From an uncultured Leptospirales bacterium (GTDB taxonomy: Bacteria; Spirochaetota; UBA4802; UBA5550), in assembly GCA_964529965.1 (NCBI GenBank), contig CAZHAD010000003.1, forward strand, positions 16,660 to 80,659: DNA of 64,000 bases. The letters run 5' to 3'. A program made the position numbers and the translations under genes. Of the stretch, positions 41,530 to 64,000 are shown one piece after another. The notes under the pieces were generated by a model. It saw only the letters and a list, made by a program, of their open reading frames with translations. It was not told the origin of the DNA and did not search any database. How positions within the stretch are numbered: the first letter of the stretch is position 1; every line of letters begins with the position of its first letter.

Positions 41530-41579
41530 TTTTTTTCTCCTTGATTTATTAAAGATTTATTAAATCAGTATTTTGCCAT

Positions 41580-45759: not shown

Positions 45760-46641
45760 ATGAATCAGATTGGACAAGGCGTCATGAAACAGGCGGCTTT
45801 TTTTTCCTGTATGATCTTGGTCGTTTGGGGAATCATTCTGGCACCGGCCCATGGGATGAGGAAGAGCGCAGGCCGCGCGGCCGTGTACCTGGTCGGGGTG
45901 GGTCCCGGTGATCCGGACCTTATGACGTTGAGGGCGCTGGGCGTCATAAAAAAAGCGGATGTAATCGTATGCTACCGCAAGGTGAGCGAACGATTTGCGG
46001 AATATCTTTCCGGCAAAGAGGTTATCGAAGGATCCCACCAGCTATTCAGGTTTTATGGGAAAAAAAGATCGTCGATCAGAAAAGAAGACATCGGCCAATA
46101 TGATGAAATCACCCCAAGAAGAAACGCATTGATAACCCGCATGAGAAAGGAGTTGAAGAAGGGAAAGACCATCGCGGTCCTTGACTACGGAGACCCCATG
46201 CTGTACGGGCCATGGGTGTGGATTTTGGAAGAATTCAGCGACGTGAGGCCGGAAGTCATTCCCGGAATAAGCGCGTTTAACGCGGCCAGCGCAGCCCTGA
46301 AAAAATCCCCAACCCTTGCGGAAAGAACAAAATCGGTGATCCTCTCATCCAACGATTGGCCGGGGAAAACCGACACGATTGAAAGAGTATCGACCCACGG
46401 ATCCTCCATGGTCCTTTTCACCATGAAAGCAGAATTCGATTTTTTTATCAATGAGCTTACAAAAAAATACGATTCACGCACGCCGGTTGCCGTGGTCATG
46501 TATGCGGGTTATAAGGGAAAAGAACGGGTGATTGCAGGGAACCTGGGAAACATAAGAAAAAAAATCTCAAAACCTGAATTGCCTTTTGAGTATCTCATCT
46601 GCGTCGGCGATTTCATAACATACCGGGAAAAAAAGAAATAG
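45760..46641 (+). CDS. Tetrapyrrole (corrin/porphyrin) methylase family protein with an N-terminal hydrophobic segment
   Basis: VYLVGVGPGDPDLMTLRALGVIKKADVIV signature. AGGAGA RBS before ATG 45760. Residues 10-30 are hydrophobic (AAFFSCMILVVWGIILAPA). Confidence 0.75.
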   Translation: MNQIGQGVMKQAAFFSCMILVVWGIILAPAHGMRKSAGRAAVYLVGVGPGDPDLMTLRALGVIKKADVIVCYRKVSERFAEYLSGKEVIEGSHQLFRFYGKKRSSIRKEDIGQYDEITPRRNALITRMRKELKKGKTIAVLDYGDPMLYGPWVWILEEFSDVRPEVIPGISAFNAASAALKKSPTLAERTKSVILSSNDWPGKTDTIERVSTHGSSMVLFTMKAEFDFFINELTKKYDSRTPVAVVMYAGYKGKERVIAGNLGNIRKKISKPELPFEYLICVGDFITYREKKK

Positions 46642-46705: not shown

Positions 46706-46734
46706 TTGACATTATGGGCATATGCTCATAAATT
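46706..46734 (+). promoter_or_regulatory. Sigma-70-like promoter of the sigma-54 activator gene with a near-identical copy of the 16-bp palindrome
   Basis: TTGACA-17 nt-TAAATT. The spacer carries ATGGGCATATGCTCAT (46714-46729), matching the 41994-42009 palindrome at 15 of 16 positions. Confidence 0.5.
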
Positions 46735-46768
46735 GGCGCATGACGAAGGGAGGAATGCGCCACCCGAT

Positions 46769-48076
46769 ATGACGGAGCCGGAAGAAAAAAACATCATCCT
46801 CGACAGCATCGCCGACGGAATCTTCACCGTTGACATGGATTTCCGCATCACCTCCATGAACCGCGCGGCAGAGGAGATTCTGGGCATCGATGAAAAGGAC
46901 GCCCGGGGAAAGCTCTGTTTCGAGGTCTTCCATGCCAATATCTGCGAGCACTCCTGCGCATTGAAAGAGACGCTGCACACCGGGGATAAAATAATCAACA
47001 AGACGATATATATCGTCAATTCCAGGGGGGAAAAGATCCCGATCAGCGTGAGCACCGCCCTTTTGAAGAACAAAAAGGGAACGATCATCGGCGGGGTGGA
47101 GACCTTCCGCGACCTGACCCCGCTCGAAACCCTGAGGAAGCAGATCGAGCAAAGCTACACCTTCGAGGACATCGTCAGCAAAAATAAGATCATGCGCGGG
47201 CTCTTCGGCATTCTTCCCGACATTGCGGCGAGCGACAGCTCGGTGCTCATCGAGGGCCGAAGCGGAACCGGGAAGGAGCTGATCGCACGGGCGATCCATT
47301 CGTTAAGCAACAGAAGTTCAAGGCCCCTCGCGGTCATAAACTGCGCGGCGGTGCCGGACCCGCTGCTTGAATCCGAGCTTTTCGGGTACAAGGCGGGGGC
47401 GTTCACCGACGCGAAAAAGGACAAGCCGGGGAAAATAGCCCTTGCAGAGGGAGGCACCCTCTTCTTCGACGAAATCGGCGAGATATCGCCCGCCATACAG
47501 GTGAAGCTTCTCCGCTTCATACAGGAGCGCGAATACGAGCCCCTGGGCGGCACGGCGCCGGTAAAATCAAACGTGAGGATAATATCCGCCACGAACAGGG
47601 ACCTCTCCGTCGCGGTGAAGGAGCGCGCGTTCAGGGACGATCTCTTTTACAGGCTCAACGTCTTCAATATAAAGCTCCCTCCCCTTGCGGATCGGAGGGA
47701 GGACATTCCGCTGCTGGTGAAGCATTTCATCGACAAATACAACGTCCTCAAAAACAAGCATATAGAAGGCGCATCAGATGAGGTCATGAAGATACTGATG
47801 AATTACGATTATCCGGGCAACATCCGCGAGCTCGAGAACATCATCGAGCACGCCTTCGTTCTCTGCCGCGAACCGTATATCCGGACCGCCCATCTGCCGG
47901 TCAATCTCTTGCGGGACGAAGCGGCCTCGGAAAAAACGATGAAGCTGGAAAAGATCGAGCGGATATACATTCTACGCGCGCTCGAGAAAAACTCCTGGAA
48001 CAGGTCGAAGGCGGCCGCCGACCTCGGTATTGACTCCTCGACCCTCTGGCGCAAAATGAAAAAATATAAGATCTAG
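46769..48076 (+). CDS. Sigma-54-dependent transcriptional activator (PAS sensor + AAA+ + Fis-type HTH)
   Basis: PAS region ILDSIADGIFTVDMDFRITSMNRAAEEILG. AAA+ motifs GRSGTGKE, GAFTDA and ESELFGY. C-terminal HTH NRSKAAADLGIDSSTLWRKMKKY. The start at ATG 46769 follows GGGAGG; the track start 46706 is the promoter -35. Confidence 0.9.
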   Translation: MTEPEEKNIILDSIADGIFTVDMDFRITSMNRAAEEILGIDEKDARGKLCFEVFHANICEHSCALKETLHTGDKIINKTIYIVNSRGEKIPISVSTALLKNKKGTIIGGVETFRDLTPLETLRKQIEQSYTFEDIVSKNKIMRGLFGILPDIAASDSSVLIEGRSGTGKELIARAIHSLSNRSSRPLAVINCAAVPDPLLESELFGYKAGAFTDAKKDKPGKIALAEGGTLFFDEIGEISPAIQVKLLRFIQEREYEPLGGTAPVKSNVRIISATNRDLSVAVKERAFRDDLFYRLNVFNIKLPPLADRREDIPLLVKHFIDKYNVLKNKHIEGASDEVMKILMNYDYPGNIRELENIIEHAFVLCREPYIRTAHLPVNLLRDEAASEKTMKLEKIERIYILRALEKNSWNRSKAAADLGIDSSTLWRKMKKYKI

Positions 48077-48169
48077 GCATTCCCAACAAAAATATATTTG
48101 CAATTTCAAGTTCCCGGTTTGATAAATACGTACAATCGCGTTTATGATTTTCTTTTACACAGGCACAAC

Positions 48170-49375
48170 ATGAATAATAAATCGTACATGGATGCGTTTG
48201 ACCAGAAAGGAAAAAGCGAAAAGATCTGCAAAAATTGCGGGTTATGCCTGCAAAAATGCCCGGTAATGAGAATGGACAAAAACGAAGCCATTGCCGAGCA
48301 TGCCCGCTTGAGAAACGGAGAGAGCACGCTGCGCGTCCTGCAGGAATGCGATTTCTGCTACAATTGCAATACGTACTGCCCGCACGGCCTGAACCCCATG
48401 GCCCTCATCATGGCGCGCATCTCGGACAGGATAAAAAAATCAGGGAAGGGGATACCGGAATATCTCCAATATCTCTTTGTCGGCCGGGGGGAGCCTTCTG
48501 TATTTGAGGACTTATATAAAATGCTGCCTGAAGAAGAACAGTCGGTCCTGGACCGATGGGAAACGCCTCCGGCAAAATGCAAAGAGGTTTTGTTTATCGG
48601 GTGTATCGGCAGGGAGATACCCCTTGAAATCGAACATTCCTCCGTGCTTAAGGAGCTCCCGAAGTACGGGCCGCGCATCGCCTGCTGCGGCGAGCTCCCC
48701 TTCCGGCTGGGGGATTTCAATGAATTCAGCAGGATTGCGGAAAGGACGATGACGCTGCTTTCAAAACTTCAAACCGACCGCCTGGTATGCTACTGCGGCT
48801 CGTGCACGCACTCGTTCATGAACATCTGGCGCCAGTATCTGGGCGTCACCCTGCCGTTTGAGATCGTGTCCGTATGGGAATGGCTCTGGGACAAGGTCAG
48901 AAACAAGGAGCTTGTCGCACGAAGAACAATAGCGAAAAAAATCGCGCTCTCGGATTCATGCTACGGCAGCGAGCTGGGCGATCCGTTCTTTGCCGCGGTC
49001 AGGGGTCTGCACGAGGCGGCCGGGTTTGAAGTCGTCGAGCTGCAAAACAACCGGTATGACAACCATTGCTGCGGCATGGTGAGCATTGTCCGGAACGACT
49101 TTGACTTCATGCAGCCGCTCAAAGCGGCGCAGAGAAAAATCGGGCAGGTGATGGAATCCGGAGCGCCCGGTGTGGCCTGCTATTGCCCGGGGTGTTTGAC
49201 GCGGCTTGCGGGCCCTGCGAAAAAGGCGGAGCTGGAGTCAAGATATTCGCTGGAGGACATCCTCTGGGCTTTTGGTGACGATTGCGAGGTTCCCTTGAAG
49301 AAGCGGCTGTCTTTGCAGAGCAAGCTTGTCGTGGAGCAATTCCAGAAATACATGGCCCGTTCGTCATCCCAATAG
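48170..49375 (+). CDS. (Fe-S)-binding protein, HdrD-like with CCG domains
   Basis: CKNCGLCLQKCP and CDFCYNCNTYCP motifs. CCG-type motifs ACCGE, CYCGSC, HCCGM and CYCPGC. ATG 48170. Confidence 0.75.
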   Translation: MNNKSYMDAFDQKGKSEKICKNCGLCLQKCPVMRMDKNEAIAEHARLRNGESTLRVLQECDFCYNCNTYCPHGLNPMALIMARISDRIKKSGKGIPEYLQYLFVGRGEPSVFEDLYKMLPEEEQSVLDRWETPPAKCKEVLFIGCIGREIPLEIEHSSVLKELPKYGPRIACCGELPFRLGDFNEFSRIAERTMTLLSKLQTDRLVCYCGSCTHSFMNIWRQYLGVTLPFEIVSVWEWLWDKVRNKELVARRTIAKKIALSDSCYGSELGDPFFAAVRGLHEAAGFEVVELQNNRYDNHCCGMVSIVRNDFDFMQPLKAAQRKIGQVMESGAPGVACYCPGCLTRLAGPAKKAELESRYSLEDILWAFGDDCEVPLKKRLSLQSKLVVEQFQKYMARSSSQ

Positions 49376-49431: not shown

Positions 49432-49476
49432 TTGCAAAATGCACGAATCTCTACGCATCAGATTTGCAAAACGCAA
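49432..49476. promoter_or_regulatory. Candidate enhancer (UAS) pair for the sigma-54 activator
   Basis: TTGCAAAATGCA (49432-49443) and TTGCAAAACGCAA (49464-49476) have starts 32 nt apart. They lie about 215-260 nt upstream of the -24/-12 promoter. Confidence 0.35.
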
Positions 49477-49689: not shown

Positions 49690-49704
49690 TGGCACGAATA
49701 TTGC
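49690..49704 (+). promoter_or_regulatory. Sigma-54 (-24/-12) promoter
   Basis: TGGCACgaataTTGC matches the consensus TGGCAC-N5-TTGC exactly. Lies 14 nt upstream of the 49718 start codon. It is the only such match found by eye on either strand. Confidence 0.8.
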
Positions 49705-49717
49705 TTTAATAATTATC

Positions 49718-50137
49718 ATGAAAAGCGAGGTAATAGCGATACCGGCGTTTCAGGAACGGGTATCCCCGCTGCTCGACGTGTCGGACCGATACGCCATATA
49801 CGAAACCGAAAACGGCGAGATAAAACAGAAGGTCGGAATAACGGTCGCATGCGACAGCGATGCGCAGAGGATTGAAAAGCTGAAGGAGATAGGCGTCGAC
49901 ACCATCATCTGCGGAGCGGTGAGCGGCTATATCGCTCGCTTCATAAATGAAAGGGGAATGAGGCTTGTATCGATGATATACGGGCCCCTGGAGGAAATAA
50001 TCGACGCCTACCTGAGAAACGCATTACCCGCATGCCGCACCGGCCCGGTTGCATGCGGGCGCCGGCAAAGAAGGAGGCGCGGCCCGGGAAGCGGCGCGGC
50101 CGCGCGGAGAAATCATACAAAGGAGGAGGAGCGATGA
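49718..50137 (+). CDS. NifX/NifB-C-terminal-like domain protein with an Arg-rich C-terminal tail
   Basis: MKSEVIAIPAFQERVSPLLDVSDRYAIYE...IICGAVSGYIARFINERGMRL. Tail CGRRQRRRRGPGSG. Confidence 0.65.
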   Translation: MKSEVIAIPAFQERVSPLLDVSDRYAIYETENGEIKQKVGITVACDSDAQRIEKLKEIGVDTIICGAVSGYIARFINERGMRLVSMIYGPLEEIIDAYLRNALPACRTGPVACGRRQRRRRGPGSGAAARRNHTKEEER

Positions 50138-50493
50138 AGATAGCGGTGACCTCGACGACAAAAACCATAGACTCGCTCATGGATGAACGGTTCGGAAGGG
50201 CCAGTGGTTTTATTATCTTTGACACCGAAACGAGCGGGTACGAGCATATCGACAACACGCAAAATCTGAATTCGACCCAGGGAGCGGGCATTCAGGCCGC
50301 GAAGTCGGTGATAAACACAGGTGCGACCGTGCTCATCACGGGAAACGTCGGACCCAAGGCGTATGCGGCGCTCGCGGCTGCGGGAGTGGAGGTCTTCCTG
50401 AAAAAAGGGGGAACGGCCATGGATGCGGTCGGGGCCTATCTCTCGGGCGCGCTTGCGAAAGCGGCTGAGGCGAATGCCAAAGCACACTGGTGA
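50134..50493 (+). CDS. NifX/NifB-C-terminal-like domain protein
   Basis: AGGAGGAGGA RBS and an ATGA overlap with the upstream gene. MKIAVTSTTKTIDSLMDERFGRASGFIIFD...VLITGNVGPKAYAALAAAGVEVF. Confidence 0.75.
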   Translation: MKIAVTSTTKTIDSLMDERFGRASGFIIFDTETSGYEHIDNTQNLNSTQGAGIQAAKSVINTGATVLITGNVGPKAYAALAAAGVEVFLKKGGTAMDAVGAYLSGALAKAAEANAKAHW

Positions 50494-50603
50494 TCACAAG
50501 AGGTAAGCGGCAAAGATTGAATCGCTGTTTTAAAAAATCGTAACGCGATACTTTCCGGTTCAGTGTATATTTTTAATTTAAAAAAAAAATTCATGGTTGG
50601 GTC

Positions 50604-51446
50604 ATGAAAACTAAAATTACGGTGGTATGCGAGAATAGCGTCGTGGTACCTCTGCCCCTCATCGGAGAGCACGGATTCTCATGCCTGATCGAATCAGAAG
50701 AGGTCACGCTTTTCGATACCGGCCAGGGTCTCGGCATCTTCAACAATCTGAAAAACATGGGAAAAAACATCGACGGAATTAAGCGCGTGGTCCTGAGCCA
50801 CGGGCATTACGACCATACGGGCGGCCTCCTGTCGGTTCTTGAAAGCAGGAACGAGAAGACCCCCGTGTTCGTCCACCCTGACGCCTTCAACGACAAGCGG
50901 GCGGTCATCGCCGCGCCGCAACGAACGATCGACGTCCCCATAGGCATGCGCGCCTCAAAAGAGGCATACGAGCAGGCGGGTGCGGAATTCAATTTTATCA
51001 GGGGATTTGTAAAAATCACCAATTCCATTTCCGCCCTGTCGGAGGTGCAGCGTCCCTCGGGCTGGAAAACCTGGGACAGCCGTCTCAAGCAAAAAGTCAA
51101 CGATATAAATTCCGATGATCCATTCACCGACGACCTCTCGCTTCTGATCACGACAGAATCGGGCCCGGTGGTGCTTCTGGGGTGCGCGCATGCGGGGATC
51201 GTCGAAATCCTTGATGATATTTCAAATAAAACGGGATTCCGTGAATTCCACGCGGTCATCGGCGGCACGCACCTTGAAAGCGCGCCCGAGGACTACATCG
51301 CCAGGACCTTCGACACGCTCAGGAGGTATGCCGTGTGCATAATCGCCGTGTCCCATTGCACCGGATTGAAAACGGCGTGCAGGTTCGCATCTGAGTTTAA
51401 GAGCGAATTCGCTCACGCCTCGGTCGGAAGCGTTTTCGAGTTTTAA
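50604..51446 (+). CDS. MBL-fold metallo-hydrolase (COG1237-like)
   Basis: LSHGHYDHTGGL (HxHxDH) and a later GCAHAG region. 280 aa. Confidence 0.8.
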   Translation: MKTKITVVCENSVVVPLPLIGEHGFSCLIESEEVTLFDTGQGLGIFNNLKNMGKNIDGIKRVVLSHGHYDHTGGLLSVLESRNEKTPVFVHPDAFNDKRAVIAAPQRTIDVPIGMRASKEAYEQAGAEFNFIRGFVKITNSISALSEVQRPSGWKTWDSRLKQKVNDINSDDPFTDDLSLLITTESGPVVLLGCAHAGIVEILDDISNKTGFREFHAVIGGTHLESAPEDYIARTFDTLRRYAVCIIAVSHCTGLKTACRFASEFKSEFAHASVGSVFEF

Positions 51447-51461
51447 CAAGGGGAGTGGGCC

Positions 51462-52322
51462 ATGAACATAACGGTAGCGAGCGGGAAGGGAGGCACGGGA
51501 AAGACGACCGTTGCGCTGTCCCTGGCGGCGTGTTATTCACGCAACGGCATACGCGTCTCCATACTCGACTGCGATGTCGAGGAGCCGAATGTCAATCTCT
51601 TCCTGAAGGCCGAAATAGAGGGCGTCGAAACCTTCAGCATGCCGGTCCCCCGTGTGGAGGAATCACGCTGCACAGGATGCGGGGAGTGCGAGCGGATATG
51701 CGCATTCAACGCCGTCGTGCTTGTAAAGGGAAAGCCGCTGATCTTCCCGGAACTGTGCCATTCATGCGGGGGGTGCGGCCTCGTCTGTCCCGAGGGCGCG
51801 GTCACGGAAACGGCTAAACCGATCGGCGTTATAGAAAGTGGGTACAGAGACGGCGTCAGCTACGCGGGTGGCAGGCTCAATATAGGCGAGCCGATGTCCC
51901 CGCCGCTCATCAGGGAGGTGAAGCGGCGCCATATGGAATCGGACGTCAGGATCATCGATTCGCCTCCGGGTACGTCCTGCCCCGCGGTGGAAGCAATGAA
52001 GGAAAGCGATTACGTTGTGCTGGTGACCGAGCCCACTCCTTTCGGCCTCCACGATCTTACCCTCGCCGCGGGTGCGGTGCGCGCGCTCGGGATCCCGTTC
52101 GGCGTGGTGGTCAACCGGGCGGACATCGGCGACGACTCCTTTATGGAAGAGTGCCTGGCCAGGAGGTATGAGATTATCGCAACCATCCCCCATTCAAGAG
52201 AAATCGCGGAATCATATTCGCGCGGCGACTGCATTTCATATATAATGTACCGCTATCGCGAAGAAATAGAAAAAATCGCGTCACGCGCGGAATACTGCAA
52301 TGCGAGGAACGTTCGGGCATGA
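51462..52322 (+). CDS. MinD/ParA-class P-loop ATPase with inserted 2x[4Fe-4S] ferredoxin module (COG1149-like), type 1
   Basis: SGKGGTGKTT P-loop. CTGCGECERICAFNA and CHSCGGCGLVCPEGA motifs. DSPPGTSCP. Confidence 0.85.
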   Translation: MNITVASGKGGTGKTTVALSLAACYSRNGIRVSILDCDVEEPNVNLFLKAEIEGVETFSMPVPRVEESRCTGCGECERICAFNAVVLVKGKPLIFPELCHSCGGCGLVCPEGAVTETAKPIGVIESGYRDGVSYAGGRLNIGEPMSPPLIREVKRRHMESDVRIIDSPPGTSCPAVEAMKESDYVVLVTEPTPFGLHDLTLAAGAVRALGIPFGVVVNRADIGDDSFMEECLARRYEIIATIPHSREIAESYSRGDCISYIMYRYREEIEKIASRAEYCNARNVRA

Positions 52323-53182
52323 TCCGGGAACTGGTGATCATCAGCGGAAAGGGGGGGACGGGAAAGACGAGCATAGCGGCTTCGTTCGCGGCGCTTGCGA
52401 AAAACAAGGTCATGGCCGACTGCGACGTGGACGCGTCCGACCTTCACCTGGTATTGCAGCCCGGGATCATTCAAACCGAACCCTTTGAAGGCGGCATGAA
52501 GGCATTCATCAACAAGGGCCTGTGCGCCTCATGCGGAGAATGCCTGCGGACATGCCGCTTCGACGCGATCGACGATAATTTTGACGTGGACCAGATATCC
52601 TGCGAGGGGTGCGGAGTGTGCGCGCGTTTCTGCCCCCAGGAGGCGATTGAAATGAGGCGACACGTTTCCGGCAAATGGTTCGTGTCCGATACACGACACG
52701 GGCCGCTCGTGCACGCCCGCCTCGGCATCGCGGAGGGGAATTCGGGCAAGCTCGTCACCCTTATCAAAAAGAAGGCACGTGAGATCGCGGACGAAAGGGG
52801 ACAAGGCCTCGTCATCGTGGACGGCTCGCCGGGCACGGGCTGTCCGGTCATCGCCACGATCTCCGGCGCATCCCTGATCCTGATCGTGACCGAGCCGACC
52901 GTGGCAGGGCTTCACGATCTGCAGAGGGTCTTCGATCTGACCCGCCATTTCCGCGTCAAAGCGGCGGTCTGCGTCAACAAGGCCGACATCAACCCGGACA
53001 AGGCCGCGGAGATAAAGGCGTTTTGCGAACAAAACGCCGTCCCCCTGCTGGCGTCCGTTCCCTATGACACTGAAGTGACGCGGGCGCAGGTGGCCGGAAA
53101 AAGCCTTGTGGAATTTTCCGGGGGAACGGCATCCCGGATATTACGTTCAATGTGGAAAGATATCGAAATATTGTTACATTAG
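52319..53182 (+). CDS. MinD/ParA-class P-loop ATPase with inserted ferredoxin module (COG1149-like), type 2
   Basis: SGKGGTGKTS P-loop. CASCGECLRTCRFDA and CEGCGVCARFCPQEA motifs. DGSPGTGCP. ATGA overlap with the type-1 gene. Confidence 0.85.
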   Translation: MIRELVIISGKGGTGKTSIAASFAALAKNKVMADCDVDASDLHLVLQPGIIQTEPFEGGMKAFINKGLCASCGECLRTCRFDAIDDNFDVDQISCEGCGVCARFCPQEAIEMRRHVSGKWFVSDTRHGPLVHARLGIAEGNSGKLVTLIKKKAREIADERGQGLVIVDGSPGTGCPVIATISGASLILIVTEPTVAGLHDLQRVFDLTRHFRVKAAVCVNKADINPDKAAEIKAFCEQNAVPLLASVPYDTEVTRAQVAGKSLVEFSGGTASRILRSMWKDIEILLH

Positions 53183-53212
53183 TATTAATAGCAAATCAGA
53201 AGGATAAATTAA

Positions 53213-54091
53213 ATGTTGAAAAAGCAGGCTGAAGAAGCATCAAACAACCAGAACCCTGAGGGACCCGTACATGCGGACAAAGAGGCGGAGGAACGCGCCG
53301 CGCTCAAAAAGAACATGGACAGGATATCCCATAAGATCATAGTTCTTTCCGGCAAGGGCGGCGTGGGCAAAAGCACGGTGGCCGTAAACCTCGCCGTTTC
53401 CCTTGCAGAAAAAAAATTCAAGACCGGGCTGCTCGATATCGACATTCACGGCCCCAGCGTCCCGAAGCTCCTGGGAATCGAAAAGGGCCAGGTGCTCGGA
53501 GCCGGAGACGGAAAACTGCTGCCGGTTGAATACAACGAGCACCTCAAGGTCATGTCAATCGGTTTTCTGCTCCAAGACCACGACGATGCGGTGATCTGGC
53601 GCGGGCCGTTGAAATACGGCGTCATCAGGCAGTTCCTCTCCGACGTGGACTGGGGCGAGCTTGACTATCTCATCATCGATTCCCCGCCGGGGACCGGAGA
53701 CGAGCCCCTCACCATATGCCAGCTCATCGAAAATCCGGACGGGGCGATCGTAGTCACCACGCCGCAGGACGTCGCGCTCATCGATGTCAGAAAATCCATA
53801 AGCTTCTGCAAGCAGCTCAATATGCCGGTCATCGGAGTCATTGAAAACATGAGCGGGTTCGTCTGTCCCCATTGCGGAAAAGAAACCGACATATTCAAGA
53901 ACGGCGGCGGGAAAAAAATGGCCGGCGAAACGAGCGTTCCCTACCTCGGCAGTATACCGATCGAGAGCCGCATCACTGCAAGCGGGGACAGCGGAAAGCC
54001 CTTTTACGATGCCGCCGGAGATATCGCCACCGCGGCCCAGAAAAATTTTTCATCCATCGTGGAAACAATAATAAAAGGAGCAACAAAATGA
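53213..54091 (+). CDS. Mrp/NBP35 (ApbC) family Fe-S cluster carrier ATPase
   Basis: SGKGGVGKSTVAVNLA, DSPPGTGDE, and the CPHCG motif in ENMSGFVCPHCGKETDIF. Confidence 0.9.
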   Translation: MLKKQAEEASNNQNPEGPVHADKEAEERAALKKNMDRISHKIIVLSGKGGVGKSTVAVNLAVSLAEKKFKTGLLDIDIHGPSVPKLLGIEKGQVLGAGDGKLLPVEYNEHLKVMSIGFLLQDHDDAVIWRGPLKYGVIRQFLSDVDWGELDYLIIDSPPGTGDEPLTICQLIENPDGAIVVTTPQDVALIDVRKSISFCKQLNMPVIGVIENMSGFVCPHCGKETDIFKNGGGKKMAGETSVPYLGSIPIESRITASGDSGKPFYDAAGDIATAAQKNFSSIVETIIKGATK

Positions 54092-54426
54092 AAATAGCAC
54101 TGCCCATATCGGATAATAAGCTCTGCATGCACTTCGGACACTGCGAGCGCTTTGAGGTCTTCGATGTTGACGACGACACCAAAGAGATTACCGCGCGCGC
54201 GACGTTCGACGCGCCGCCGCACCAGCCCGGGCTTCTGCCGCGCTGGCTGGCTGAGAAAGGGGTGACGTGCGTAATTGCCGGCGGCATGGGCTCACGCGCC
54301 GTCGACATTTTCAGGGAAAACGGCGTGAGCGTCGTCACGGGAGCGAATGCGGGGGAACCGGATTCGATCGTGAAAGATTTTATCCAGGGCCGGCTCATTG
54401 CTGGCGAGAACGTGTGCGACCATTAA
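54088..54426 (+). CDS. NifX/NifB-C-terminal-like domain protein
   Basis: ATGA overlap with the Mrp gene. MKIALPISDNKLCMHFGHCERFEVFDV...CVIAGGMGSRAVDIFRENGVSVV. Confidence 0.8.
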   Translation: MKIALPISDNKLCMHFGHCERFEVFDVDDDTKEITARATFDAPPHQPGLLPRWLAEKGVTCVIAGGMGSRAVDIFRENGVSVVTGANAGEPDSIVKDFIQGRLIAGENVCDH

Positions 54427-54516: not shown

Positions 54517-54837
54517 ATGGATGAATTTAAATTTAGAAGCGAGGAAATTATCGAGGCGTGCCGCCTCCTGGGAATCGAGGACGGCCATTCCCTTAGAGAT
54601 GTGAAGCGCGCGTATCGCCGTCTGGCCGCGCATCTTCATCCGGATGTCTGCGATGAACCGCTGGACGTGTGCGCAGGGCGCTTCCAGGCCCTCAAAAGGG
54701 CCTATGACCTGCTCGTTCACCACTGCGAAACGCATCCCATTCGTTTTTCAGCGGATAAAAGGCGCAGCGACCCCGAATTTGACCATATCATGAGGTTTTA
54801 CGACGGCTGGCTTGGTGATATTCCAAAAAAACGTTAA
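54517..54837 (+). CDS. J-domain-only protein (DnaJ/HscB-like co-chaperone)
   Basis: LLGIEDGHSLRDVKRAYRRLAAHLHPDV, with the HPD tripeptide. 106 aa. Confidence 0.75.
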   Translation: MDEFKFRSEEIIEACRLLGIEDGHSLRDVKRAYRRLAAHLHPDVCDEPLDVCAGRFQALKRAYDLLVHHCETHPIRFSADKRRSDPEFDHIMRFYDGWLGDIPKKR

Positions 54838-54867
54838 TGAACATCAGAAAAATAGCGGCGGATTCAC

Positions 54868-55161
54868 ATGGGCATCAGGTTAAATAATGTGGAAATTGAG
54901 CTGATTCTCGGACAAGGCTGCTGCATCGAATGCGCGGCCAAGCGTGAATACAACAGGCGCATGGCACACATCATGACAAGCGATGTGACGACCGAACCGG
55001 ATGATGAGACCAAAATGGAGCTGCTGCTGGACTTTCTTGAAACGGCTGATTTCGCCGCACTCCGTGCTTCCGACGAAAGCCTTGCGGGGATGCGAGATTC
55101 CCGTTGCCTTTTAAGAATGAGCGACGACGGCAAGCCGCATGTGACCGTCATTGAACGTTAA
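54868..55161 (+). CDS. Hypothetical 97-aa protein
   Basis: ATG ORF with coding-like composition. Contains GCCIEC. No family recognised. Confidence 0.45.
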   Translation: MGIRLNNVEIELILGQGCCIECAAKREYNRRMAHIMTSDVTTEPDDETKMELLLDFLETADFAALRASDESLAGMRDSRCLLRMSDDGKPHVTVIER

Positions 55162-55193
55162 TTTTATTCTTAATCTAATATAGAGGAATCAAC

Positions 55194-55430
55194 ATGCCAA
55201 CGTATGAATATCATTGTACACAATGCGGATATCGTTACGAGCTCTTTCAGAGAATGAGCGACGAGCCGCGTTCTGCGTGCCCCTCATGCGGCGGAGAGGG
55301 GAAGCGATTGATTTCCGCGGGCGCGGGAATCATCGTCAAGGGAAAAAATACCGCGCCGACTCCCTGCGGGAACGACAGCCCATGCTGCGGCAGGGGTGAG
55401 CCGTGCGGGAAGTCTTTTGAGTGCGGATAA
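55194..55430 (+). CDS. FmdB-family zinc-ribbon protein (CxxC_CxxC_SSSS type)
   Basis: [34 protein letters not shown]. Confidence 0.8.
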
Positions 55431-55449
55431 TATATTAAAGGAGGCGCCT

Positions 55450-56175
55450 ATGCCGGAAGAATTCAAACCGGGTTGCGCGAGGCCTACGGGGGGACCCGTG
55501 GGTGAGGAGCCGGCCTCGGCCGGTTCCAAGGAACCGATCCTAATAGAGGAGGAAAAAAAGGTCATGATCCAGGTCGGAAAAAAAGCCCCTGATTTTATTG
55601 CGCCAGCGTATTATCAGGGAAAATTCGTCACTGTCAAGCTTTCGGAATATCTCGGCAAGTGGACCCTGCTCTGCTTCTATCCCGGAGATTTCACTTTCGT
55701 TTGAGCTACTGAAATTTCGGCGGTCGCCGAAAAATATCCCGAGTTCCAGAAGCTCGGAGTCAACATCCTCTCAATGAGCATCGACAGCGTGTTCGTGCAT
55801 AAAATGTGGAACGACAATGAGCTGTCCAAAATGGTGAAAGGAGGCGTGCCATTCCCCATGCTCTCGGACGCGGGAGGCAAGGTGGGATCGGCATACGGCA
55901 TCTACGACGCAGACGCCGGAGTGGAGACCCGGGGCAGGTTCATCATCGATCCCGACGGGATCGTGCAGGGATTCGAGGTCCTCACGCCGCCGGTCGGCCG
56001 CAACGTGGCCGAGTCGATACGGCAGGTGCAGGCCTTCCAGCTAGTCAGAAACAGCAAGGGCGCCGAGGCCACTCCCTCCGGATGGAAACCGGGCAAGAAG
56101 ACCCTGAAGCCGGGCCCGGACCTTGTGGGCAAAGTCTGGGAGGTTTGGAAAACAAGCATGGCCTTCGACGATTAA
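55450..56175 (+). CDS. Selenocysteine-containing peroxiredoxin (PrxU-like); UGA at 55702-55704 read as Sec
   Basis: Track ORFs 55396..55704 and 55774..56175 are in the same frame, separated only by TGA. Joined, they read [23 protein letters not shown], which is the universal FYPxDFTFVCPTE peroxidatic motif. AAGGAGG precedes ATG 55450. An alternative start at 55564 gives [11 protein letters not shown]. Confidence 0.75.
55715..55732 (+). promoter_or_regulatory. Bacterial SECIS-like hairpin downstream of the peroxiredoxin UGA
   Basis: TTTCGGC-GGTC-GCCGAAA is a 7-bp stem with a GGUC apical loop. It starts 10 nt after the UGA. Confidence 0.6.
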
Positions 56176-57703: not shown

Positions 57704-59050
57704 CTAGCGATCCCGCATTTCGGAAATCCTTTCGGGTACCTTGTCAACCGGAACGATAACGCTCTCATTCGCTTTAAGCTCGCTGTCGACGACATCTTTC
57801 TTGAGAAGAAATAACGATTCGTTCCCGTGACACGAATTACAGCTCTTATTCTGCGACGTCTTTCTTCTGATATTATGGGGCGTCGTCATCTTCCACGTGG
57901 GAACACTGTTAAAATTCACTAAGGATCTCTTGGTATAATACTCACAAGTGCTGTCACAGACAGGTATATGCCTGAGGACGGAAAACTTTTCCGGCCTTTT
58001 CTTCGACCGCATCGGATTGAATCCGATCTTAAAGGCCATCCAGGAGGCCTTGCTCTTATAACAGGGAATCCCTCTTGTGTCGATACTCACGTGACAGGAA
58101 GTGCAATTTTTATACGGCTGGGAATGACAGACATAGCAGCTCGCTTTATCCCTGTGAATTGTATGTGTTTTAGCATTCTTAGAGTTACTGTCATAGATCT
58201 TCTTATGGCAATTTATGCACATCGGACCATTATCAACAGCGTATCGATTTTTGTATTCCTTGTCACCGCCATGCATCTCCGTACCGGTATGGCACTTCTC
58301 ACATTTCATAAATTTTTCGTAATGAACATCAGGCTTCATGTCCTTGTTCTCGCCGAAATATTCCTTTCCGATTCTGCTGCCGTGACATGCAGTGCAAACC
58401 AATTTCATGGGAGGCTTTCTCTGAAAGAGATGCCCTTCAAGGAACCCGCCATCAATAGAGTTCGGTCTGCTGATATGACACTGCCCGCAGCTGCTATGGC
58501 ACGTGCTGCAGTGATTCTTGAAGACTTTATCCATTTTTTTCCGAATTGCCTTATCGGAGCCCGCCCTCTTGTAGAGCGCCGTTTTAAAAGGCTTCAGGGT
58601 AACGTGAAGGCTCTTTCCGTAATTCTTTACTATGTCATCGTGACAATCACCGCAGACCTTCCCTGCATCGGGATAGGTCGGGTCTTTAACCACGCCCTTG
58701 TGTGCGGTTTTCCAATTGGGATCCCCCGGGTTGCCTCCATGGCAGGTGTGACACTCGATATTTCCGTGGTTTTCATCCTCAAGAATGTCACTGTCTACGA
58801 AGATCTTTTCATGCGGGGCCAACGGCTCCACCTCACCGCCTCATCCCTCACCCTCATTGGCAGGTTTAATTACCGGCCTTGTTTTGGCGATCTCCCTGGT
58901 TATTTCAATCAACGTGCGTGCATTTGTATGGCACTTGAAGCACTGGCTTGCAGGTACCTCGGCGCCGAAGGGTTCGCCCTGCATGAGAAGCAGACAGGAT
59001 ACAACGAAAAGACAAAATAACCCGGCAATGCCCAAATATTTCCCCATCAA
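57704..59050 (-). CDS. Multihaem c-type cytochrome (10 CxxCH + 1 upstream CxxCH); the signal-peptide segment is joined through an in-frame UGA (58843-58841), so a possible selenoprotein
   Basis: Track ORFs 58841..59050 (signal peptide + CFKCH) and 57704..58831 (GTG start, no signal peptide, 10 CxxCH) are in the same frame. They are separated by TGA-GGC-GGT-GAG. The fused reading is ...PANEGEG-U-GGEVEPLAPHE.... Confidence 0.55.
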
Positions 59051-59259: not shown

Positions 59260-59607
59260 CTATTTAATCCTTTTCGAAAACAGCTTTGATCTCAACTGCA
59301 TTATTTCAATAATACCCTCTCTAATCGTTTTATATCCTTTGATAATTTTAGGATTGGCTATCTGGTAAAAAACATGCTTTCCCTCTTTCCGTTCAATCAG
59401 CACCCCCCATTCCTTCATGAGACGCAGGTGCTGGGATACGTTCGAGGGCGAGATGCCGATTTTTTTAGCTAGTTCCCCAACAGAATATTTATGCCCCTCA
59501 AGGGCCCACAAGATCTGGAGCCTCTTCTCATGTGAAAAAACGCTGCAGATGCCGGCATGTATTTTAAAAATCTCTAAATCTTTATTTTCGTTCATGGCAA
59601 ATTTCAC
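59260..59607 (-). CDS. ArsR/SmtB family transcriptional regulator (lacks the CVC As(III)-binding triad)
   Basis: HEKRLQILWALEGHKYSVGELAKKIGISPSNVSQHLRLMKEWGVL winged HTH. Only one Cys (GICSVF). Confidence 0.85.
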   Translation of the reverse strand: MKFAMNENKDLEIFKIHAGICSVFSHEKRLQILWALEGHKYSVGELAKKIGISPSNVSQHLRLMKEWGVLIERKEGKHVFYQIANPKIIKGYKTIREGIIEIMQLRSKLFSKRIK

Positions 59608-62120: not shown

Positions 62121-62431
62121 GTTTGATCGTCCTTCTCATTAATCATGGAGGTGATCATGTCCGCCATCCGATGTCCGACAACCGTGACCGTCACGCCGCT
62201 GACCCCCTCCAGTCTCTCAAGGGCCTCCCTGATACGAAATGCCAGCGGCAACACCAGCGGGCACTCGGGAGACGATGGGCGGAACTCCATAGAGACCGCG
62301 CCCCCGCCGTTTATCGACAGGTTTCGTATCAGCCCCATGCTCATCACATCCATGTTGGTGCCTGGGTCGGTTACTTCCTTGAGCCTTTGATGAAGCCGTT
62401 CCATCATATCCATCGCCCACTCACGTTTCAA
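62117..62431 (-). CDS. DUF59 (MIP18/SufT-like) Fe-S assembly domain protein
   Basis: LKEVTDPGTNMDVMSMGLIRNLSI...FRPSSPECPL. 4-nt overlap with the methyltransferase gene. Confidence 0.7.
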   Translation of the reverse strand: MKREWAMDMMERLHQRLKEVTDPGTNMDVMSMGLIRNLSINGGGAVSMEFRPSSPECPLVLPLAFRIREALERLEGVSGVTVTVVGHRMADMITSMINEKDDQT

Positions 62432-63281
62432 GACGGCCCCGTATGCGTTCCCACATTTTTTTCACCTCAGCGGTAACTTCCCCGCAATCGTGTTCCACCA
62501 CGGACTTGCGCAGTATCATGGCCTTGGTTACCTCCGGGTCGTACCGTATCTTCCCCGCGACATCGAGTCCTTTTGCCGCACAGTACTCCTCGATGGTTGA
62601 CGCATTATAGGGATTGATGTCGCACTTGTTGATGCATACCATAACCGGTATGTCAAAGTGCGCTGCCACATCAACCACGCGTTTGAGGTCATGGATGCCC
62701 GAAAGCGTCGGTTCCGTGACGGCCAGAAGAAGATCCGCGCCGGTGATCGAGGCTATTACCGGACAGCCGATACCCGGCGGCCCGTCCGTGATAATCGTGG
62801 GGGTAGCTTCCCCTTCCGCGGCATTTGACGCCAGCTGGCGCACCAGGGTCACCAGTTTGCCGGAGTTCTCTTCTGCGATGCCGAGCCGGGCGTGCGTCAT
62901 GGTCCCGGCTCTGGTATGCGATATGAACCACCTGCCCGAGATGGCGCGCTCCATGGCGATCGCCTCTTCCGGGCAGGTCCGCGCGCAAAAGGCGCACCCC
63001 TCGCAGGACACCGGGTCGACGGTGAAATCGTGTATGGCGTCGAAGCGGCAGAGGCTCTCGCAAAGACCGCAGCGCGTGCATTTCGATTCGTCAATGACGG
63101 CTATCTTTCCCCCGAGAAAATCGCCGGTTTCCACGCTTTCCGGATCCAGTATGAGATGGAGGTCCGCCGCGTCGACGTCGCAGTCGGCGATTACCGGGGC
63201 CTTCGCCAGCATCGAGAGCGCCGCCGTGATGCTGGTTTTCCCTGTCCCACCCTTACCGCTTATGACAGTGAGCTTTTTCAT
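62421..63281 (-). CDS. MinD/ParA-class P-loop ATPase with inserted ferredoxin module (COG1149-like), type 2 paralogue
   Basis: MKKLTVISGKGGTGKTS. CTRCGLCESLCRFDA and CEGCAFCARTCPEEA motifs. DGPPGIGCP. Colinear with 52319..53182. Confidence 0.85.
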   Translation of the reverse strand: MKKLTVISGKGGTGKTSITAALSMLAKAPVIADCDVDAADLHLILDPESVETGDFLGGKIAVIDESKCTRCGLCESLCRFDAIHDFTVDPVSCEGCAFCARTCPEEAIAMERAISGRWFISHTRAGTMTHARLGIAEENSGKLVTLVRQLASNAAEGEATPTIITDGPPGIGCPVIASITGADLLLAVTEPTLSGIHDLKRVVDVAAHFDIPVMVCINKCDINPYNASTIEEYCAAKGLDVAGKIRYDPEVTKAMILRKSVVEHDCGEVTAEVKKMWERIRGRLET

Positions 63282-64000
63282 ATCTGGCATACTCCGCTTT
63301 GATGTGGTCAAACAGGGACTCATAGCGCGCACGGTATTCCCGGAGGTTCTCAAGAATGAGCATCCCCGCCGAGTACTGCTCCGCGATACGACGGTCCCAG
63401 GGAAAAGACATCAATATCGGAATTTTTTCCTCTTCGCAGTAGTTGCTCACCTCGTTATCGCCGATATTGCATAAATTTATTACCACGCCCATTGGAACGT
63501 TGAGTTTCCTGACCATTTCAACCGCGAGCTTTAAATCGTTGAGGCCGAAAGGCGTCGGTTCCGTCACCAAAACGCAGAAATCGGCACCCTTCACGGTTTC
63601 CACCACCGGGCAGGATGTTCCGGGCGGCGAGTCCAAGATGACCGTACGCCCGGACTCGATGCGATCCTTCACCCTACGTATGAGAGGTGGCGCCATGGGC
63701 TCCCCGACGTTCAGGACGCCGTGAACGAAGGATAGACCACCAGTTGATCCTGTTTCAATGACGCCTATCTCGCGATCCTCCTCGCGGATGGCCTTTTCCG
63801 GGCAGAAATACTCACATGCGCCGCACCCGTGGCAGAGCTCCGGGAATACCATGACGCGCTTCTTTATAACGACGATCGCGCTGAACTCGCAAACCTCGCC
63901 GCACTTCCCGCAATGGGTGCACCGCGATTCATCGACCACGGGCACAGGAAGCCCTACTGTTTCCCTTTTATAAATAACCGGCTTCAAGAACAGATGTGTG
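63253..64000 (-). CDS. MinD/ParA-class P-loop ATPase with inserted ferredoxin module (COG1149-like), type 1 paralogue; N-terminus beyond the window
   Basis: The frame stays open to the window edge (THLFLKPVIYK...). CTHCGKCGEVCEFSA and CHGCGACEYFCPEKA motifs. DSPPGTSCP. Colinear with 51462..52322. Confidence 0.85.
   Translation of the reverse strand, partial: THLFLKPVIYKRETVGLPVPVVDESRCTHCGKCGEVCEFSAIVVIKKRVMVFPELCHGCGACEYFCPEKAIREEDREIGVIETGSTGGLSFVHGVLNVGEPMAPPLIRRVKDRIESGRTVILDSPPGTSCPVVETVKGADFCVLVTEPTPFGLNDLKLAVEMVRKLNVPMGVVINLCNIGDNEVSNYCEEEKIPILMSFPWDRRIAEQYSAGMLILENLREYRARYESLFDHIKAEYARYEKAHCHKR

Follow-up and report, generated by a model that had tools for sequence, protein, structure and literature searches.

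Does the run of seven co-directional genes in this window (the whole 64-kb stretch of DNA analysed) encode an uncharacterised system for metallocluster assembly, as a preliminary description had proposed, or one that is already known? The seven genes are a single sigma-54-controlled operon and a new example of the already described ORP (orange protein complex) cluster of anaerobic bacteria; the locus is very probably the orp cluster version of an uncultured lineage whose nearest kin are Spirochaetota/Leptospirales genomes. The label "uncharacterised" thus has to be dropped, since the complex, its activator and the MrpORP protein have already been studied (PMC6345978, PMC8359166). By sequence, the locus is orthologous to the orp cluster DVU2103-DVU2109 of Desulfovibrio vulgaris Hildenborough (DvH), judged from an NCBIfam model, PDB entry 2WFB, published motifs, and Desulfovibrionales loci standing in for it. 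Apart from the MBL-fold protein, each operon protein has an ORP-system counterpart (Orp7-like, Orp8, Orp3/Orp4 and a split MrpORP/Orp9), and the regulatory side is matched as well, by an OrpR activator, a sigma-54 promoter and palindromic upstream sites.

A summary of the features is presented in Table 1. All seven genes were found as plus-strand ORFs, with the three ATGA overlaps at 50134, 52319 and 54088 that had been noticed before, and the earlier domain calls were corroborated by Pfam for every gene. Genes called independently on a metagenome contig of 99% identity (L085) give the same seven products, of 139, 119, 280, 286, 287, 292 and 112 aa.

Table 1. Features of the orp locus and its surroundings (window positions)
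Feature	Position	Strand	Evidence
OrpR-type sigma-54 enhancer-binding protein, PAS sensor/AAA+/HTH	46706..48076	+	Pfam PAS_9, Sigma54_activat, HTH_8
HdrD-like CCG/4Fe-4S dicluster protein	48098..49375	+	Pfam CCG, Fer4_8
Candidate OrpR sites (upstream activating sequences), TTGCAAAATGCA (49432-49443) and TTGCAAAACGCA (49464-49475)	49432..49475	+	TTGC-N5-GCAA-type palindromes
Sigma-54 (-24/-12) promoter, TGGCACGAATATTGCT	49690..49705	+	exact match to TGGCAC-N5-TTGCW
g1, Orp7-like divergent NifX-like protein (Di-Nase, PF02579)	49718..50137	+	Pfam PF02579, 31.6 bits (cut-off 26.3)
g2, orange protein (Orp8) homologue	50134..50493	+	PF02579, 77.6 bits; best PDB match 2WFB
g3, MBL-fold metalloprotein, 2P4Z/TM1679 subfamily	50604..51446	+	Pfam Lactamase_B
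g4, Orp3/Orp4-type MinD-like ATPase with inserted 2x[4Fe-4S] ferredoxin domain	51462..52322	+	Pfam CbiA/ParA and Fer4
g5, paralogous second Orp3/Orp4-type ATPase	52319..53182	+	Pfam CbiA/ParA and Fer4
g6, P-loop (Mrp/NBP35) half of MrpORP (Orp9)	53213..54091	+	PF10609, 338.7 bits
g7, Di-Nase half of MrpORP, separate gene	54088..54426	+	PF02579, 72 bits
DnaJ-domain, AF_2379-like, Zn-ribbon and selenocysteine-type peroxiredoxin genes	54517..56175	+	co-directional, downstream
Second Orp3/Orp4-type pair: g4-type, 63253 to off the window end; g5-type, 62421-63353	62421..64000	-	Pfam

One link to the known system runs through MrpORP, a characterised Fe-S carrier that transfers clusters to Orp3/Orp4 in vitro (PMC6345978) and for which NCBI has a named equivalog model, NF041136. 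This model is matched by g6 over positions 1-251 (392.4 bits) and by g7 over positions 265-365 (127.4 bits); singly both fall below its 450-bit cut-off, but jointly they match it end to end. The GKGGVGKS and CPHC motifs of g6 were verified, and g7 has the C-M-HFGHCE, PPHQPGLLP and C-terminal CDH motifs named for MrpORP's Di-Nase domain (PMC6345978). A split of the same type, with the second half in a different reading frame, is found in 31 of the loci examined, mostly from Spirochaetota, and is therefore no sequencing error. In contrast, MrpORP is fused both in Desulfobaculum sp. SPO524, a cultured strain of Desulfovibrionales (L051; 417 aa, in a collinear cluster) and in a Desulfovibrio MAG (L053; 440 aa, in an orp1-type operon), and these two proteins possess an N-terminal Cys-rich stretch that g6 lacks.

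The orange protein itself is represented by g2, which aligns over its full length with the D. gigas ORP (2WFB) at 45% identity and E 4.9e-23. The product of g1 is divergent and ends in a cationic tail rich in Cys and Arg; among seven orthologues, including the one in L053, conservation of the N-terminus begins at Met1, and the tail retains its composition (Cys and Arg/Lys/Gly). A fourth PF02579 gene (79.4 bits in Pfam) lies outside the operon on the minus strand, at 41167-41529.

The two ATPases are 32% identical over 264 aa, and both have the Walker A sequence GKGGTGKT. The ferredoxin insertion had been described as two CxxCxxCxxxCP motifs: this is correct for the second, while in the first CxxCxxCxxxC is followed by A (g4) or R (g5). 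Two ferredoxin motifs each have likewise been described for Orp3 and Orp4 (PMC6345978). An AF2 model of g4 (pLDDT 92) has archaeal MinD, FlhG, HypB, ApbC and NifH as its closest folds, with TM scores of only about 0.6 because of the ferredoxin insertion. Among 67 homologues of g4 the eight ferredoxin cysteines are invariant or nearly so (C73 in at least 90%), and two further cysteines, C37 (in DCD) and C173 (in PPGTSCP), are invariant. The earlier view that no function has been defined for the MinD subgroup with inserted ferredoxin holds in substance: no solved structure spans a whole protein of this type, and the literature searched contained no later functional paper. A second Orp3/Orp4-type pair is located 8 kb downstream of the operon; its g4-type member is 50% identical to g4 and its g5-type member 52% identical to g5, against only ~30% to the other paralogue.

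The remaining operon gene, g3, encodes an intact HxHxDH motif (HGHYDH), and Foldseek matches its AF2 model (pLDDT 91) to 2P4Z (TM 0.89), 3H3E (0.84) and the phosphodiesterase 7DCK (0.74). Of 50 ORP loci, 29 have an MBL gene, which lies downstream in 16 and separates the orange-protein gene from the ATPases in the other 13. The gene g3 is an accessory member of ORP clusters, and we infer that its product is an optional enzyme.

Co-occurrence was counted over those 50 loci, which are species-level loci with enough flank. The orange-protein gene has both ATPase genes beside it in 47, and their order never varies; for Mrp the count is 43 and for the last NifX-like gene 46. The genes are indeed co-conserved in other genomes. 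The loci belong to Spirochaetota, Desulfobacterota, Planctomycetota, Lentisphaerota and Peptococcales. The DvH cluster is reported to yield a physical complex of Orp3, Orp4, Orp5, Orp8 and Orp9 (PMC6345978). Its genes form two divergent operons, whereas the order here is that of a single collinear one, and nothing in the window corresponds to Orp5, which in DvH is the small [2Fe-2S] member of the complex. The MBL-fold gene, the near-leaderless first gene, the split MrpORP and the second Orp3/Orp4-type pair are further local peculiarities.

The operon does lie behind a sigma-54 promoter, as had been proposed: TGGCACGAATATTGCT is the sole exact TGGCAC-N5-TTGCW match in 64 kb, where 0.02 are expected by chance, and the same element is found at -28/-29 from the g1 start in seven other loci (L001, L003, L005, L006, L008, L018 and L025). 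The promoter ends 12 nt before the ATG of g1, leaving a near-leaderless mRNA, and no Shine-Dalgarno sequence precedes this gene. The gene for the regulator starts either at the TTG at 46706 or at an in-frame ATG 21 codons downstream. Its product has the triad C71-x8-C80-x3-C84, a Glu at +2 and, at residue 231, GAFTDA, matching the signatures of DvH OrpR (DVU2106; C52/C61/C65 with D/E54, and GAFTDA), and shares 50-52% identity along its entire length with the regulators adjoining the orp clusters of L053 and L051. Regulators of this kind were found in 34 of 55 loci, and the Cys triad is present in 37 of the 38 neighbouring regulators examined in the comparison loci. The sigma-54 activator OrpR monitors redox potential by means of a PAS-domain [4Fe-4S] cluster; expression is confined to low redox potential, and ChIP-seq in DvH limits the OrpR regulon to the two orp operons (PMC8359166). 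The two candidate palindromes are the only matches in the window (0.00 expected) and share the core GC-RTTTT-GC with the DvH site, GGGCGYRTTTTGCGCCC (PMC8359166); in nine related loci, palindromes of the ATTGCAAAAYGCAAT type lie 190-290 bp upstream of g1. OrpR is predicted to bind at both of the candidate palindromes here.

The membership of the flanking genes is uncertain. The HdrD-like gene begins 22 bp after the regulator gene and is probably co-transcribed with it. It is present in L085 and absent between OrpR and g1 in the relatives L001 and L006, and L004 has a similar CCG protein downstream of its cluster. No convincing terminator was seen downstream of g7, and the four genes that follow may be co-transcribed with the operon; AF_2379, Zn_ribbon_8 and split AhpC-TSA genes likewise follow the cluster in L001 and L085.

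What the complex does can be read in several ways. One tentative possibility is that it stores or detoxifies metal sulfides (thiomolybdate/tungstate-copper or iron-sulfide) arising spontaneously in a sulfidic, reducing cytoplasm, with the NifX-like proteins as buffers. The orange protein binds [S2MoS2CuS2MoS2] non-covalently (PMC6345978), and thioferrate is stored by IssA, a protein from this domain family, by means of a cationic tail, a feature conserved in g1 and its orthologues. Expression only at low redox potential (PMC8359166) and the nearby sulfur-trafficking genes (IscS, TusA-DsrE, rhodanese) are also consistent with storage. However, with about 35 residues the g1 tail is short, and it does not show the aromatic and glycine-rich pattern reported for IssA. 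It is also not obvious why storage should require two ATPases together with an Mrp carrier, and among the operon genes none for a Mo, W or Cu transporter was found.

The published hypothesis is cell division, by septum positioning (PMC8359166). Here the MinD-like g4 and g5 would be membrane-bound through C-terminal amphipathic helices and would position the septum or another structure, with Fe-S clusters conferring redox dependence. The sole phenotype reported is a morphological defect on OrpR inactivation in DvH (PMC8359166), MrpORP-GFP is polar there (PMC6345978), and MinD-like C-terminal amphipathic helices are reported for Orp3/Orp4; the best fold matches of g4 include MinD, FlhG and FleN, and by a crude test the helical hydrophobic moment is high in the C-terminal segment of both g4 (0.62) and g5 (0.88). 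We nevertheless consider this unlikely: the authors themselves call the role still unclear (PMC8359166), the other five operon proteins are metal-cluster binders or carriers without a known positioning role, and no minC/minE-like or fts genes lie beside the cluster in the window or the surveyed loci.

That these genes provide accessory maturation or carrier functions for a nitrogenase or nitrogenase-like enzyme encoded elsewhere is most improbable: although PF02579 domains are common to NifX, NafY and NifB and the visible part of the genome is only 64 kb, the operon is controlled by a redox sensor and not a nitrogen sensor, the DvH regulon is restricted as noted above (PMC8359166), and no NifH-like gene occurs within about 10 kb of the cluster in 84 comparison loci from many phyla. 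The earlier report that the window has no nitrogenase genes was borne out, with no NifH/D/K, NifE/N or radical-SAM NifB in Pfam scans of ORFs of at least 200 aa (less three of 204-269 aa) and many smaller ones, and only P-loop similarity (at most 40 bits) in tblastn with A. vinelandii NifH.

The mechanism that we favour instead is carried over from work on D. vulgaris and D. alaskensis and inferred for the organism here. At low redox potential the PAS-domain [4Fe-4S] cluster would keep OrpR active, and OrpR at the two palindromes would drive the sigma-54 promoter. The Mrp half, g6, would dimerise round a CxxC-bridged [4Fe-4S] cluster and pass clusters to the ferredoxin domains of a g4/g5 heterodimer; the Di-Nase half, g7, would carry a [3Fe-4S]-type cluster and g2 a non-covalently bound Mo/Cu-sulfide cluster. 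PMC6345978 is the source for the cluster types and for Fe-S transfer from MrpORP to Orp3/Orp4. The ATP-driven metallocluster line envisaged earlier agrees with these transfer data but is unproven for the whole complex. In our own view, the g4/g5 pair would be a nucleotide switch, with ATP binding and hydrolysis coupled to the transfer of electrons or clusters towards the small NifX-like carriers. The MinD/HypB/ApbC/NifH fold class of g4 and the two extra invariant cysteines of its homologues are both counted in favour of the mechanism as a whole. The proteins would come together as one Fe-S-rich complex, which we consider more likely to be an ATP-gated device for redox or for the handling of metal-sulfide clusters, produced solely under reducing conditions, than machinery that positions the septum directly.

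We assign the seven co-directional genes of the operon, g1 to g7, to the known family of orange protein (ORP) gene clusters; the locus is not an undescribed system. At the level of sequence, we regard a scan against NCBIfam as the decisive evidence for this identity. The model NF041136 ("iron-sulfur cluster carrier protein MrpORP") matched g6 with 392.4 bits over model positions 1-251 and g7 with 127.4 bits over positions 265-365. The best PDB match of g2 is the Desulfovibrio gigas orange protein, 2WFB (E 4.9e-23, 84.5 bits, full length, 45% identity). The genes g4 and g5 are paralogues (32% identical) with two ferredoxin motifs each, and Orp3 and Orp4 are likewise described as paralogues with two [4Fe-4S] ferredoxin motifs each (PMC6345978). 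The regulator is a PAS, sigma-54 and HTH protein by Pfam and carries C71-x8-C80-x3-C84, Glu73 at +2 and GAFTDA at residue 231; OrpR (DVU2106) of Desulfovibrio vulgaris Hildenborough (DvH) has the PAS cysteines C52/C61/C65 with D/E54 (PMC8359166) and is recorded as having the unusual loop GAFTDA. With these NF041136, 2WFB and OrpR signatures, the preliminary description of the locus as uncharacterised is not supported. The genes themselves were described correctly: all seven lie on the + strand at the coordinates in the table, a separate gene call on the metagenome contig L085 (99% identical) yielded seven identical products, and profile HMM matches in Pfam back every domain that had been proposed. 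The ATGA overlaps at 50134, 52319 and 54088, the Walker A motifs of the ATPases and the CPHC of g6 are all present. Each of g4 and g5 had also been said to carry two CxxCxxCxxxCP modules; both do have two ferredoxin motifs, but only the second ends in CP.

Genes in and around the ORP cluster (window positions, except for the last line)
Feature	Position	Strand	Remarks
FAD-linked oxidase and two CCG-domain Fe-S proteins	16906-20481	minus	oxidase flanked by the Fe-S proteins
ORF	20792-21484	+	230 aa
ORF	24811-26175	minus	454 aa
TusA-DsrE fusion	38538-39155		module 40854-41969 just upstream
Class-V aminotransferase/cysteine desulfurase-like gene	39331-40491		module 40854-41969 just upstream
2x[4Fe-4S] ferredoxin	40854-41198	minus	small module
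Fourth PF02579 NifX-like protein	41167-41529	minus	small module; 79.4 bits
DUF134	41580-41969	minus	small module
YHS-domain protein	42520-42993	+	upstream of regulator
TonB-dependent receptor	43436-45718	+	upstream of regulator
Tetrapyrrole methylase	45760-46641	+	upstream of regulator
Regulator (OrpR-type)	46706-48076		PAS, sigma-54, HTH
HdrD-like gene	48098-49375
g1 (Orp7-like)	49718-50137	+	139 aa; PF02579 weak, 31.6 bits (Pfam)
g2 (Orp8, orange protein)	50134-50493	+	119 aa; PF02579, 77.6 bits (Pfam)
g3 (MBL-fold)	50604-51446	+	280 aa; Lactamase_B (Pfam)
g4 (Orp3/Orp4-type)	51462-52322	+	286 aa; CbiA/ParA and 4Fe-4S domains (Pfam)
g5 (Orp3/Orp4-type)	52319-53182	+	287 aa; CbiA/ParA and 4Fe-4S domains (Pfam)
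g6 (Mrp half of MrpORP)	53213-54091	+	292 aa; PF10609, 338.7 bits (Pfam)
g7 (Di-Nase half of MrpORP)	54088-54426	+	112 aa; PF02579, 72 bits (Pfam)
Peroxiredoxin	55396-56175	+	in-frame TGA
Multihaem cytochrome	57704-58831
ArsR regulator	59260-59607	minus
NifU_N/IscU-like scaffold	60017-60400	minus
DnaJ-domain protein	60451-60987	minus
SAM methyltransferase	61464-62120	minus	after second Orp3/Orp4-type pair
Small TrmO_N gene		minus	after SAM methyltransferase; seen in L085
Second pair, g5-type	62421-63353	minus	52% identical to g5
Second pair, g4-type	63253 to beyond window end	minus	50% identical to g4
Radical-SAM protein in comparison locus L009	11309-12475		equivalent position in L015, L025 and six other loci

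The orp1/orp2 genes of DvH (DVU2103-DVU2109; Fievet et al. 2011 via PMC6345978, PMC3897727 and PMC8359166) encode a matching set of proteins. Common to both are the Orp3/Orp4 pair, the Orp7-like and Orp8 Di-Nase proteins, a carrier made of Mrp and Di-Nase, an OrpR-type activator with its Cys triad and GAFTDA, a sigma-54 promoter and palindromic upstream sites. The orange protein, of which Orp8 is a homologue, binds a [S2MoS2CuS2MoS2] cluster non-covalently (PMC6345978); g4 and g5 are likened to Orp3/Orp4 (DVU2103/2104) by description, domains and motifs. The host differs: the closest relatives of the window are Spirochaetota/Leptospirales metagenome-assembled genomes, whereas DvH is a sulfate-reducing Desulfovibrio. 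The arrangement differs as well. The DvH genes form two divergent sigma-54 operons flanking the activator DVU2106 (PMC6345978), whereas the window has a single collinear + strand operon, with MrpORP split in two, an MBL-fold gene inserted and no Orp5. Orp5 belongs to the complex as a small [2Fe-2S] protein (PMC6345978); the operon contains no small Cys-rich ORF, the gap between g2 and g3 measures only 110 bp, and the additional genes that relatives have there are not Cys-rich either. Further local traits are AT-rich OrpR sites, a first gene that appears near-leaderless, unlike that of DvH, and a second Orp3/Orp4-type pair 8 kb downstream.

MrpORP (Orp9) is a fusion of an Mrp/NBP35 domain with a Di-Nase (PF02579) domain, the latter marked by CxHFGHCE, TPPPHxPGxxP and a terminal CDH (PMC6345978). 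In the window, the model built on this protein (NF041136; DVU2109 / Dde_3202) is covered end to end by two genes that overlap by ATGA and are read in different frames. The deviant Walker A (GKGGhGK[ST]) and CxxC of MrpORP are found in g6 as GKGGVGKS at 47 and CPHC at 218, and g7 carries CMHFGHCE, APPHQPGLLP and the terminal CDH. Each gene falls below the 450-bit equivalog cut-off of NF041136, although their scores sum to ~520 bits; this sum and the complementary coverage of the model identify g6 and g7 as a split MrpORP orthologue. The P-loop half differs from that of the DvH system in that it has no N-terminal Cys-rich stretch. A frameshift as the cause of the split is ruled out: among the related loci examined, Mrp and Di-Nase are fused in 13, and 31 others, mostly from Spirochaetota, encode the two in separate frames, so the split is a trait of the lineage and not an error. 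According to PMC6345978, the association of P-loop and Di-Nase arose several times, and fused and unfused forms are intermixed.

The sigma-54 (-24/-12) promoter that had been predicted ahead of the operon is TGGCACGAATATTGCT at 49690-49705, the sole consensus match in the window against 0.02 expected. It sits at -28/-29 from the g1 start, with the same spacing in seven relatives. Only 12 nt separate the promoter end from the g1 ATG, a Shine-Dalgarno sequence is absent and g1 is conserved from Met1. Given this conservation of spacing and of Met1, and with no Shine-Dalgarno sequence, g1 appears to be translated from a leaderless or near-leaderless mRNA on the sigma-54 transcript. The window contains two candidate OrpR palindromes, TTGCAAAATGCA at 49432-49443 and TTGCAAAACGCA at 49464-49475, and no other; in nine relatives ATTGCAAAAYGCAAT is found 190-290 bp upstream of g1. 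In DvH, the site of OrpR reads GGGCGYRTTTTGCGCCC (PMC8359166). The candidate sites and the DvH site share a layout of half-site, R-TTTT spacer and half-site, with an inner GC...GC (core GC-RTTTT-GC); the half-sites are AT-rich in the window (ATTGC-N5-GCAAT), in contrast to GGGCGC-N5-GCGCCC in DvH. The [4Fe-4S] cluster of the PAS domain confines the activity of DvH OrpR to low redox potential, and this activator controls the orp operons only (PMC8359166). No RNA family of Rfam matches anywhere in the window, and thus no Moco or other riboswitch is present in it. Scans of the window for terminators and sigma-70 promoters performed no better than on shuffled sequence and are uninformative on the operon ends.

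To collect comparison loci, genomes were scanned with aligned homologues of the orange protein; this gave at least 550 species-level matches, of which the best 80 loci were kept. DvH is not among these 80; in its place, the Desulfovibrionales are represented by the reference loci L051 (Desulfobaculum sp. SPO524) and L053 (an uncultured Desulfovibrio). L051 has a collinear cluster with a fused 417-aa MrpORP at its end, and L053 an orp1-type operon with Orp7-like and Orp8-like genes and a fused 440-aa MrpORP. Among the matches listed, the nearest relatives are uncultured Spirochaetota/Leptospirales genomes, with g2 identities of up to 66%, and besides Spirochaetota the loci represent Desulfovibrionales and other Desulfobacterota, Planctomycetota, Lentisphaerota/Victivallales, Peptococcales and further groups. 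In most of the best 80 of the at least 550 matches, tblastn gave the order regulator, g1, g2, sometimes the MBL gene, g4, g5, Mrp and g7. Counts of downstream genes were made on the 50 loci of these 80 with at least 7 kb beyond the orange-protein gene. The ATPase pair is kept with the orange-protein gene in 47 of the 50; Mrp is present in 43, a g7-like gene in 46 and the MBL gene in 29. An OrpR-like regulator occurs in 34 of the 55 loci of the best 80 that have an upstream flank, and the regulators near ORP loci carry the Cys triad in 37 of 38 cases and GAFTDA in 31 of 38.

The ORP Di-Nase proteins have the same fold (IPR003731, PF02579) as NifX, NafY, the NifB C-terminal domain and IssA, and all of these are small carriers of complex metal-sulfide clusters. 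The ORP-type members differ from the NifX family in forming groups of their own with other ligand motifs, and in the window they stand outside a nitrogenase context, with no radical-SAM NifB. The motifs RFGRAxGF, GAGI and TGxVGPKA are found in both g2 and 2WFB and a Cys ligand in neither; unlike 2WFB, g2 and its relatives carry a conserved C-terminal ...HW. In the Orp7-like g1, the PF02579 domain is divergent and leads into a cationic tail rich in Cys and Arg, conserved in composition but not in sequence. This tail recalls that of the thioferrate storage protein IssA, although it is shorter and without the aromatic/glycine pattern, and we reject an IssA-like reading of g1 beyond analogy. The AlphaFold model of g3 is confident (pLDDT 91) and its HxHxDH is intact. 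It superposes on 2P4Z of T. tengcongensis (TM 0.89), TM1679 (3H3E; 0.84) and the phosphodiesterase tw9814 (7DCK; 0.74); the PDB titles of 2P4Z and 3H3E hold no functional assignment. The JGI label '7,8-dihydropterin-6-yl-methyl-4-(beta-D-ribofuranosyl)aminobenzene 5'-phosphate synthase' was transferred automatically. A literature search found nothing relevant on MBL relatives of g3 such as 7DCK, or on ferredoxin-inserted MinD-type ATPases (COG1149).

The g4/g5 pair shares a deviant Walker A with signature lysine and a MinD-type fold with the SIMIBI ATPases (MinD, NifH, ApbC/Nbp35, HypB), from which it differs by a 2x[4Fe-4S] ferredoxin domain inserted after switch I. The best folds for the AlphaFold2 model of g4 (pLDDT 92.1) are archaeal MinD, FlhG/FleN, HypB, ApbC and NifH (Foldseek E 2e-12 to 1e-8), with TM of only about 0.6 because the ferredoxin insertion is absent from every solved structure. 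Across 67 homologues the eight ferredoxin cysteines are invariant or nearly so (C73 at 90% or more); C37, within DCD, and C173, within PPGTSCP, show no variation. The N-terminal 50 residues of g4 align to NifH with a probability of 94%, placing C37 opposite the Cys of the NifH GCD. The alignment of the C-terminal half is not significant (probability 0.07%), so that a NifH-like site built from the extra cysteines, where switch-region residues equivalent to Cys97/Cys132 would hold a [4Fe-4S] cluster bridging the subunits, is hypothetical. Equating g4 Cys173 with NifH Cys132 is likewise no more than a hypothesis, the forced C-terminal alignment being meaningless where only the N-terminal 50 residues align significantly.

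As had been noted, the 64 kb contain no nifHDK, nifEN or radical-SAM NifB among the ORFs scanned with Pfam, which comprised those of at least 200 aa, save three of 204-269 aa, and many smaller ones. A search of the window with A. vinelandii NifH (289/290 identical to the PDB sequence) returned P-loop similarity only, and the 84 comparison loci contain no NifH-like gene.

Several neighbouring genes recur with the cluster. The methyltransferase and TrmO_N genes that follow the second ATPase pair lie within the main ORP cluster in L001 and L004, adjoining the ATPases, and the pair of Di-Nase and ferredoxin genes at 40854-41529 also stands upstream of the ORP cluster in L001. In nine Spirochaetota-type clusters the MBL gene and the first ATPase gene flank one for a ~389-aa radical-SAM protein (weak Pfam match, 30 bits), which the window lacks. 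DUF5320 (Gly/Arg-rich), an ARMT1-like phosphatase and a ~160-aa protein with no Pfam match also recur as companions. The peroxiredoxin downstream of g7 has its TGA at the position of the peroxidatic Cys (..DFTFV-TGA-ATE..) and is thus probably a selenocysteine peroxiredoxin; L001 and L085 show the same split of AhpC-TSA. The three genes ahead of the regulator could possibly reflect metal or corrinoid uptake. The FAD-linked oxidase set resembles D-lactate/glycolate oxidases and, with the HdrD-like gene and the multihaem cytochrome, indicates an anaerobic respiratory lifestyle. The ORFs of 454 and 230 aa had no Pfam match at E 1e-5 or 1e-3.

If the findings on Desulfovibrio are transferred, the mechanism would begin with activation of the sigma-54 promoter by OrpR at low redox potential. 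The Mrp half would then hold a CxxC-bridged [4Fe-4S] cluster and clusters would be loaded onto the Orp3/Orp4-type ATPases, while the Di-Nase half would bind a [3Fe-4S]-type cluster and the orange protein a Mo/Cu-sulfide cluster, and all the proteins would join in one complex. As to what this complex serves, redox-gated handling of metal-sulfide clusters seems to us somewhat more likely than a role in cell division. Of the seven proteins, five carry clusters, and the companions that vary by lineage are enzymes (MBL, radical-SAM, methyltransferase, TrmO-like and ARMT1-like phosphatase). The authors of the DvH studies favour a connection with cell division, on the grounds that cell shape changes when OrpR is lost and that MrpORP is polar, and call the role unclear (PMC6345978, PMC8359166); division genes do not travel with the cluster, which again favours cluster handling. 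An unlikely elaboration would make ORP a widespread, redox-gated and ATP-driven machine of the NifH kind and no cell-division factor: a g4/g5 heterodimer, with eight ferredoxin cysteines and two more invariant ones per subunit, would reduce or insert a Mo/W-Cu-S or Fe-S cofactor borne by NifX-like proteins, and lineage-specific helpers (the MBL protein in 29 of 50 loci; elsewhere radical-SAM, methyltransferase or TrmO-like enzymes) would process the cofactor or its organic part.

ORP, known since 2011, belongs with the conserved "anaerobe-specific" protein sets and has a redox control of its own. The window adds no new type of system. For ATPases of the g4/g5 type, public annotation goes no further than "ATP-binding protein" or "MinD superfamily P-loop ATPase", and labelling them as Orp3/Orp4-type would be an improvement. 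The ORP cluster and its OrpR-type regulator reach past the sulfate reducers into Spirochaetota, Planctomycetota, Lentisphaerota and Peptococcales, MrpORP is split or fused depending on lineage, and an MBL-fold enzyme, not mentioned in the ORP papers cited here, is a frequent companion. These comparative points could steer experiments on the function of ORP.
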